A DNA stretch of 64,000 bases, taken from assembly GCF_058153355.1 (NCBI RefSeq), contig NZ_CM177019.1; one strand, written 5' to 3'. The notes beneath the pieces were generated by a model. The model made no database searches. It saw nothing but the letters and a program-made list of their open reading frames with translations, and was not told the origin of the DNA. Positions 18,432 through 18,600 of this stretch are shown one piece after another. Both the position numbers and the translations under genes were made by a program. Each line of letters begins with the position of its first letter. The stretch's first letter is position 1.

Positions 18432-18600
18432 TTATCCCTCCAAACAAGACCTGACTCCAGGACAAGAGCATAGTGTGTAGTAAACACTTCATGCTCTTGC
18501 CCTGACCATTGAAATAACAACTTTCGTTTGTTTACTGTACGCTGTCTAAATAGCTGCGTGGAATAAAGTTGCACTTTTTATCATCCCTTGCAGAGCAAGA

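Follow-up and report, generated by a model that had tools for sequence, protein, structure and literature searches.

A palindromic hairpin ahead of an orphan gene on the yafV side of an Escherichia coli type VI secretion island is probably a relic of insertion sequence ends

A short palindrome that folds into an unusually stable hairpin lies between a gene for a hypothetical protein and the decayed remains of a transposase gene in Escherichia coli, at a place where the RefSeq annotation has nothing. What is it, and does it act on the gene that follows? The initial annotation of the 64-kb stretch of DNA analyzed here (64,000 nt, hereafter the window) offered three possibilities: a transposon terminal structure, a terminator, or a regulatory RNA element.

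The window is from Escherichia coli and contains fadE, ivy and yafV, after which comes the distal part of the aspV-yafV type VI secretion island. Read along the - strand, the order is VgrG cargo genes, an ISEc1-like pseudogene, an 86-bp spacer, the palindrome (P1), a 26-nt leader, ORF167, ORF170, an ISEc1-like fragment, and yafV. The features on which the analysis turns, together with a second palindrome (P2) within the VgrG cargo region, are the following.

17108-17330, - strand: internally deleted ISEc1-like fragment adjoining yafV, with a degenerate right terminus CGGGGTAAGACTACGAAAGCCC joined to a mid-transposase piece.
17928-18431, - strand: ORF167, a hypothetical protein directly downstream of P1, Escherichia-restricted.
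18432-18457, - strand: leader of 26 nt from P1 to the ORF167 ATG, with the Shine-Dalgarno sequence GGAGGG.
18458-18504, no strand assigned: the P1 palindrome, whose arms match ISAs1-family terminal repeats.
18458-18471, + strand: second P1 arm, CAGGACAAGAGCAT, matching the ISEc26 right-end repeat at 13/14 positions.
18472-18490, no strand assigned: P1 spacer of 19 nt with the inner stem AGTGT/ACACT, relevant to folding and to the likeness to an ISEc1 box.
18488-18504, + strand: P1 arm plus 3 nt, TTCATGCTCTTGCCCTG (- strand reading CAGGGCAAGAGCATGAA), the match to the ISEc26 repeat.
18541-18590, no strand assigned: segment of 50 bp separating P1 from the ISEc1-like terminus, missing in genomes with an intact ISEc1 here.
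18591-23589, - strand: ISEc1-like pseudogene (ISAs1 family, H-repeat), with right terminus CAGAGCAAGATTAC at 18591 and left terminus ..GTGATCTTTCCCTG at 23589.
25738-25763, no strand assigned: P2, CAGGGCGAGAGCATGCTTTTGCCCTA, a 26-bp palindrome with P1-type arms and no spacer.

The position originally given for the hairpin was correct on both sides. P1 lies just upstream of the 167-aa ORF, 27 nt from the ATG (18431, - strand) and separated from it by the 26-nt leader, and beyond the end of the ISAs1 pseudogene, 86 bp from the terminus at 18591. It ends 10 nt before the GGAGGG ribosome-binding site of ORF167. ORF167 is without transposase similarity, has homologues in Escherichia only, and gave no match in searches against Pfam, NCBIfam, PADLOC, PHROG and PDB sequences. 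The neighboring ORF170 (17349-17861, - strand) encodes a signal-peptide protein of the PFL_4695 / DUF2859 family, which normally belongs to integrating conjugative elements (ICE); ORF170 and ORF167 are stranded between two ISAs1 fragments, and no other ICE genes are nearby.

The surroundings contain further mobile DNA. The ISEc1-like pseudogene is broken by a group II intron, with an Rfam domain V/VI match at 19553-19628 and a reverse transcriptase/maturase ORF at 19684-21105 (both on the - strand), and by an IS21-type element with istB-like (21154-21954) and istA-like (21951-23123) genes. In about 175 genomes an intact ISEc1, together with a 21-bp internal duplicate (L003:4162-5474), takes the place of the 18541-18590 segment, giving tandem ISAs1 elements. 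Because 18563-18582 resembles the 3' subterminal region of ISEc26-clade elements, the segment is probably another decayed IS-end fragment. The sister allele of the locus (L005, 5710-5780) has a homologous stretch of about 40 bp and a solo right-end remnant of about 27 nt, which face the other way with respect to the ORF. Inside the coding region of yafV, CAGGGCGAGATTAT (16943-16956), some 165 bp away from the first ISAs1 fragment, matches the ISEc1 right-end repeat at 12/14 positions, probably by chance. The VgrG cargo at 23590-28700 is a rare effector/immunity set comprising a 433-aa ORF with an M23-peptidase domain and unannotatable ORFs of 341, 216, 339/306 and 200 aa. It was found only in a few draft or metagenomic contigs, and megablast against 5,426 complete E. 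coli genomes gave no match except to an IS1 fragment.

The near-perfect 12-bp hairpin first noted at this site is real: ggacaagagcat (18460-18471) and atgctcttgccc (18491-18502) pair at 11 of 12 positions around a 19-nt loop. The palindrome exceeds that description and covers 47 bp (18458-18504), with 14-bp arms, CAGGACAAGAGCAT (18458-18471) and ATGCTCTTGCCCTG (18491-18504), that pair at 13/14 positions; the lone mismatch reads A.C on the + strand and G.U on the - strand. A 5-bp inner stem, AGTGT/ACACT (18472-18476 / 18484-18488), brings the loop down to 7 nt. Both tips read CAGG(G/A)C toward the outside (CAGGAC... at 18458, ...GCCCTG at 18504). The suggested folding-energy calculation, carried out as RNA on a 53-nt stretch, confirmed a stable structure, with minimum free energies of -25.0 kcal/mol (+ strand) and -29.9 kcal/mol (- strand), z-scores of -6.4 and -6.6, respectively, and none of 200 dinucleotide shuffles reaching the value for P1. 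The - strand fold has 16 contiguous pairs, including the G.U. Among the short-range inverted repeats listed for the 64-kb window, P1 ranks fourth in length.

The arms of P1 were compared with the termini of ISAs1-family elements. CAGGG is the end motif of this family and was seen here at the termini of ISEc1, ISEc26 and their relatives. P1 starts with CAGGG, matches the terminal repeat of a named member, and carries two such repeats in inverted orientation with the termini outward. ISEc1 termini were mapped empirically from thousands of copies (L003:4162-5452, 1291 bp, CAGGGCAAGATTAC...ATGATCTTTCCCTG). The first 10 nt of the P1 arm on the - strand, CAGGGCAAGAGCAT, equal the ISEc1 right end exactly, the first 10-11 nt of the terminal repeat being common to P1 and this element of the same family. 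Exact CAGGGMAAGA occurs in the window only at P1 and at the pseudogene's true left end. The P1 spacer, TGTAGTAAACACTTC, also resembles the ISEc1 left-end subterminal box, TGTACTAAACAATTC (13/15). Over their full length, however, the P1 arms match ISEc1 repeats at just 10-12/14 positions, and about two 12/14 matches to these repeats are found elsewhere in the window by chance. An origin from ISEc1 itself was rejected as too weak on these grounds, and ISEc26 took its place. P1 was likewise rejected as the terminus of the adjacent H-repeat pseudogene, which is ISEc1-like and ends 86 bp away, leaving P1 outside it.

Tracing P2 into other E. coli contigs led to ISAs1-family elements with right ends ..TTCATGCTTTTTCCCTG (L012) and ..TTCATGCACTTGCCCTG (a solo fragment); a Salmonella element (L020) has the same repeat type as the ISEc26 relatives. 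The nearest named relative of the transposases of these elements is ISEc26, at 81% identity (NCBI transposase name for P0013). ISEc26 is of the Rhs-associated 'H-repeat' type; annotated copies occur in about 2,600 complete E. coli genomes and adjoin ydcD/yncO in K-12 and yafV in O157:H7. Its ends were inferred from the 16/17 complementarity of its own terminal repeats at one conserved locus and from the NCBI transposase name, not from an ISfinder record. This inference places the element at L018:1386-2690 (1305 bp; left CAGGGCAAGATCATGAA..., right ...TTCATGCTCTTGCCCTG; also written as left CAGGGCAAGATCATGAAAATCG..., right ...TAATTCATGCTCTTGCCCTG). Positions 18488-18504 (TTCATGCTCTTGCCCTG) are identical to this inferred ISEc26 right terminus at 17/17, and the same positions on the - strand (CAGGGCAAGAGCATGAA) match the ISEc26 left repeat at 16/17. 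The chance of a 17/17 terminal match is about 6e-11 per position. Of the three possibilities raised at the outset, the transposon terminal structure is thus the one supported, with the arms being ISAs1-family terminal inverted repeats of ISEc26 type and not those of the adjacent pseudogene. The initial annotation had named identity to a known IS terminal repeat as the outcome that would speak against novelty, and that identity is what the comparison found (17/17 to the inferred ISEc26 right end).

P1 is not itself an insertion sequence. A complete ISAs1-family IS has a DDE_Tnp_1_assoc + DDE_Tnp_1 gene and a length of 1.2-1.5 kb; P1 has only 19 nt between its arms and must therefore be a relic or a derivative. 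In other lineages ISEc26 itself is found in this island, at whose yafV edge P1 lies. P1 differs from ISEc26 in having no transposase between the arms, being an orphan pair of ends. A literature search on ISAs1/H-rpt terminal repeats and ISEc26 returned incidental mentions only. Taken together, we conclude from the sequence comparisons that P1 is quite probably a relic of an ISEc26-type ISAs1-family IS and not a structure that evolved as RNA. Its arms would be IS terminal inverted repeats arranged like the ends of an element, with CAGGG outward and 19 nt between them, and their pairing would be a geometric by-product of the symmetry of IS ends.

ISEc26-clade elements themselves have a structure that resembles P1. 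The - strand reading of P1 agrees with ISEc26-clade left ends over nt 1-17 (16-17/17). In addition, TTGTCCTGG (the 18458-18471 arm plus the next 2 nt, - strand; P1 nt 40-48) matches nt 41-49 of the clade at an offset of 1 nt and agrees at 9/9 positions with the IS in L038, the same G5.T mismatch included. The left ends of L018, L036, L038, L020 and L032 fold as terminal hairpins of about 48 nt that close with CAGG/CCTGG and have the span and topology of P1. As single-stranded DNA the folding energies are -14.9 (ISEc26), -13.0 (L038) and -15.9 kcal/mol (P1). P1 therefore has both parts of a left-end module, the repeat at nt 1-17 and the ..TCCTGG closure at about nt 41-49, and shares with these hairpins a length of about 48 nt, a closure in near register and an inner stem. 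It differs in that it pairs the whole 14-nt repeat, whereas ISEc26 pairs 4-8 terminal nt and gains its stability from another inner stem, and in that the gene that follows, after 26 nt, is ORF167 instead of a transposase gene. The inner stem is AAAATCGTGAT/ATCACGATTTT in ISEc26 (L018:1386-1435) and AAAGTTGTGAT/ATCACAACTTT in L038, where the left-end hairpin lies about 116 nt upstream of the transposase start. The two compensatory pair changes between ISEc26 and L038 suggest that the native left-end hairpin is maintained in the clade. We know of no description of a terminal left-end hairpin for the ISAs1 family.

Comparable modules were sought in metagenomic DNA. Contig L032 (Ga0213830_1000143, GC 39%) contains two inverted 51-bp modules, at 11228-11278 and 11565-11615, with ISEc26-type arms and the layout terminal repeat, 23 nt, inverted repeat copy. 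One is located 24 nt upstream of an ORF starting MSANTLFEHFSSIDDPR, whose first 17 residues, all that are present, resemble the N-terminus of an ISAs1 transposase and make it a putative member; the other, 337 bp away in the opposite orientation, is solo and more perfect. When metagenomes were scanned for perfect ISEc26-type repeat pairs, 10 palindromes came up, and only those of L032 are convincingly IS-related. The L026 palindrome (14/14 arms) was rejected as IS-related, having no ISAs1 gene nearby and being terminator-like, after a stop codon; the remaining palindromes diverge from the repeat after nt 12. In a Salmonella enterica contig (L037), beside a yafT-like gene, the palindrome ATAAAAGCAGGGAAAGATC-ctct-GATCTTCCCGGCTTTTAT is located about 177 nt upstream of a transposase start and is followed by a T-run. 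This palindrome, an ISEc1-type terminal repeat with terminator-like features, either marks the true left end of that IS or falls 82 nt beyond it. The L037 arrangement hints that end hairpins of this kind might shield the transposase gene from read-through.

P2 supplies a second case within the window. Its arms are identical to the P1 arm at 13/14 and 12/14 positions, although a local alignment of the P1 and P2 regions scores only about 2.8 sd above a random-chunk null. P2 is located immediately after the stop codon of the 216-aa ORF and abuts the exact breakpoint of an IS1-family end fragment of about 100 bp (~25636-25737). With three substitutions, it is present between the same neighbors in six other E. 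coli contigs (L012-L017). P2 equals the exact product of a CATG-to-CATG deletion between the self-complementary CATGs of the left and right ISEc26-type repeats. It has two non-Watson-Crick positions (G.U on the + strand, A.C on the - strand) and folds better on the + strand, whereas P1 folds better on the - strand. The genes neighboring both palindromes are on the - strand, yet the better-folding strands are opposite, which argues for an origin at the DNA level.

Two routes could have produced P1 from an ISEc26-type element. In route (a), P1 would be a solo left-end module of an ISEc26-clade element that kept its native terminal hairpin of about 48-50 nt and lost the body. In route (b), it would be a fusion of left and right ends, the interior having been deleted by copy-choice between short repeats, with the paired terminal repeats favoring the event. 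The P2 sequence, which matches an end-fusion product exactly, fits route (b). Both P1 arms have G at repeat position 11, the right-end state in the clade members seen, which is imperfect for either route; nor does either account neatly for the lack of target duplications or for the better state of P1 than of its sister-allele copy. Both routes fit the sequence and are not separable here. Neither a full-length IS nor an empty site at the position of P1 was found in the 546 complete genomes that carry it or in 11 further contigs, and Escherichia whittamii also has the 47-bp form; the formation route is for this reason inferred. P1 itself would now be inert.

Route (b) has a precedent in transposon Tn10. 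The Tn10 remnant left by nearly precise excision is about 50 bp. By its geometry P1 would be a scar of the same sort, a short palindrome with both transposon termini preserved and the interior gone, and P2 is the CATG-to-CATG product described above. P1 differs in having no flanking target duplication, and an ISAs1 element is one IS, unlike a composite transposon with its long inverted arms. Nearly precise excision of Tn10 is documented (Ross et al. 1979; Foster et al. 1981), as is its copy-choice mechanism (d'Alencon et al.). A P-nucleotide-like origin, in which a transposon-end hairpin is opened off-centre, was rejected, since the CAGGG tips would then meet head-to-head at the center, the opposite of what is observed.

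The distribution of P1 was examined in complete and representative genomes. By megablast and blastn, P1 is present in 546 of 5,426 complete E. coli genomes, in one place per genome and always at the same locus. A pattern scan of 100,044 species-representative genomes found it in Escherichia whittamii only, again at the same locus, besides two chance matches in GC-rich coding DNA. All E. coli copies inspected have the same 47 bp, with only a basal indel in SCU-482; nearby E. coli polymorphisms fall just outside the P1 stem and are too few to carry weight. In E. whittamii the G.U position is A-U, giving a perfect 14-bp palindrome by a one-sided change. Target-site duplications were not found at P1 (GACCTGACTC / ACCATTGAAA), at P2 or at L032 copy 1, a weak observation given that four intact ISEc1 copies are also without obvious ones.

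The sister allele, L005, is more diverged. Its ORFs have 78-79% nucleotide identity to those of the window, its leader 69%, and its module 55%. The module is still recognizable 26 nt from the ATG, with the outer arm decayed, pairing lost, and a fold no better than shuffles (z ~ -0.5). P1 is better preserved than this copy (rough p ~0.06) and still matches the IS consensus at 17/17 and 9/9 positions. The preservation of P1 next to a decayed sister copy could hint at constraint or gene conversion. As a generic structured RNA, P1 shows no compensatory change in homologues: the E. coli copies are invariant, the E. whittamii change is one-sided, and the stem is lost in L005 (21-45% diverged). P1 is therefore neither a dispersed MITE nor a covarying RNA structure, being confined to a single locus, without compensatory changes, and decayed in the sister allele.

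These comparisons bear on whether P1, whatever its origin, now works in RNA. It could have been co-opted as the 5' leader structure of an ORF167-ORF170 - strand mRNA, serving as a stabilizing stem, an RNase III site or a barrier that decouples ORF167 from upstream IS transcription; if transcribed with ORF167, it would put a putative stem of -30 kcal/mol some 10 nt ahead of the ribosome-binding site. The best fold is indeed on the ORF-sense strand (-29.9 kcal/mol), the stem ends 10 nt before GGAGGG, and the 26-nt spacing to the ATG is shared by both alleles. The invariance of the E. coli copies examined, with polymorphisms just outside the stem, the retention of pairing in the G.U to A-U change of E. 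whittamii, and the better state of P1 than of the sister-allele copy point the same way. However, the E. coli copies are too alike for conservation to count, the sole substitution available is one-sided and not real covariation, and the sister allele retains the ORF with no pairing (z -0.5). A consensus scan revealed no promoter-like site upstream of ORF167 on the - strand, and the better fold of P2 on the opposite strand speaks for an origin at the DNA level. An Rfam 15 scan of 17000-21500 (E<=1) gave only group II intron matches (Intron_gpII and an overlapping D5 model, 19553-19628), so P1 belongs to no Rfam family found there. The regulatory RNA element among the original proposals thus received no positive support (no Rfam match, pairing lost in the sister allele, P2 folding better on the opposite strand), and a secondary, co-opted regulatory role, although conceivable, is unlikely.

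Somewhat less probable still is that P1 remains mobilizable, either as a 47-bp MITE-like unit with two ends or as the left end of a 1397-bp cassette (18504 to 17108) that carries ORF167 and ORF170 where most of the transposase would be. MITEs and mobile insertion cassettes are similar in having an IS-type terminal repeat on either side of an interior that is short or does not encode a transposase. The P1 termini face correctly outward, and 17108-18504 is bounded by left-type and right-type ISAs1 ends in the right relative orientation at a length in the ISAs1 range; the solo module of L032 near a putative full IS and the abutment of P2 on an IS1 breakpoint, expected if the P2 end was once transpositionally active, would also fit. 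The cassette ends, however, differ in IS type (ISEc26-like vs ISEc1-like), and the IS downstream in the sister allele is complete with its own left end, which places ORF165/ORF164 outside it. P1 is moreover single-copy at the same chromosomal locus in all 546 of the 5426 complete E. coli genomes that have it and, among the 100,044 species representatives, in E. whittamii alone. Dispersed copies and target-site duplications, both expected of a MITE, are thus not seen at P1, and 47 bp is shorter than typical MITEs.

The possibility that P1 is a Rho-independent terminator, either for - strand transcription from the upstream ISAs1/T6SS-cargo region or on the + strand, is very improbable. The stem-loop is strong, contains GC pairs and is intergenic, and a likeness to terminators is seen in some unrelated hairpins from metagenomes that share its 12-nt stem. 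The tails that follow it, GAGTCAGGTCTTG on the - strand and ACCATTGAAATAAC on the + strand, are without a T-run, and a consensus scan of 17200-18900 called three other terminator-like sites and not P1, so this part of the initial annotation was not upheld. Finally, a chance palindrome with a coincidental likeness to IS ends is effectively refuted: about two 12/14 matches to ISEc1 repeats elsewhere in the window, a P1-P2 alignment only ~2.8 sd above the null and unrelated metagenomic hairpins with the same 12-nt arms are outweighed by the 17/17 match to ISEc26 (~6e-11 per position), the 0/200 shuffles that fold as well, the distance of less than 90 bp to another ISAs1 terminus, the exact coincidence of the outer boundary of the palindrome with the IS terminus, and the same arms in P2.

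P1 is best read as an IS relic, an ordinary thing and not a new regulatory RNA or terminator. The result is mainly negative, in that the symmetry of IS ends accounts for a -30 kcal/mol hairpin directly in front of an orphan gene; there is therefore no reason to pursue it as a riboswitch, sRNA or terminator. For annotation, it helps to recognize that in B2-type E. coli the aspV-yafV island has, at its yafV edge, a stack of ISAs1-family end fragments (ISEc1-like, ISEc26-like and relics). A bolder and doubtful idea is that the terminal module of about 26-51 bp in the ISEc26 clade (repeat, short loop, inverted copy) could be a functional unit, for example a transposase-binding hairpin or an insulator, that may persist or even be mobilized alone as the smallest two-ended element; P1 might then have been retained upstream of ORF167 as a gene leader or as the left end of the cassette at 17108-18504 that carried ORF167-ORF170. 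To our knowledge the ISAs1/H-repeat family is mechanistically unstudied. A terminal hairpin at the left end seems to be conserved among its members, which also appear to leave behind palindromic relics with two ends, and together these would provide a concrete handle on how ISAs1/H-repeat elements are recognized and lost.
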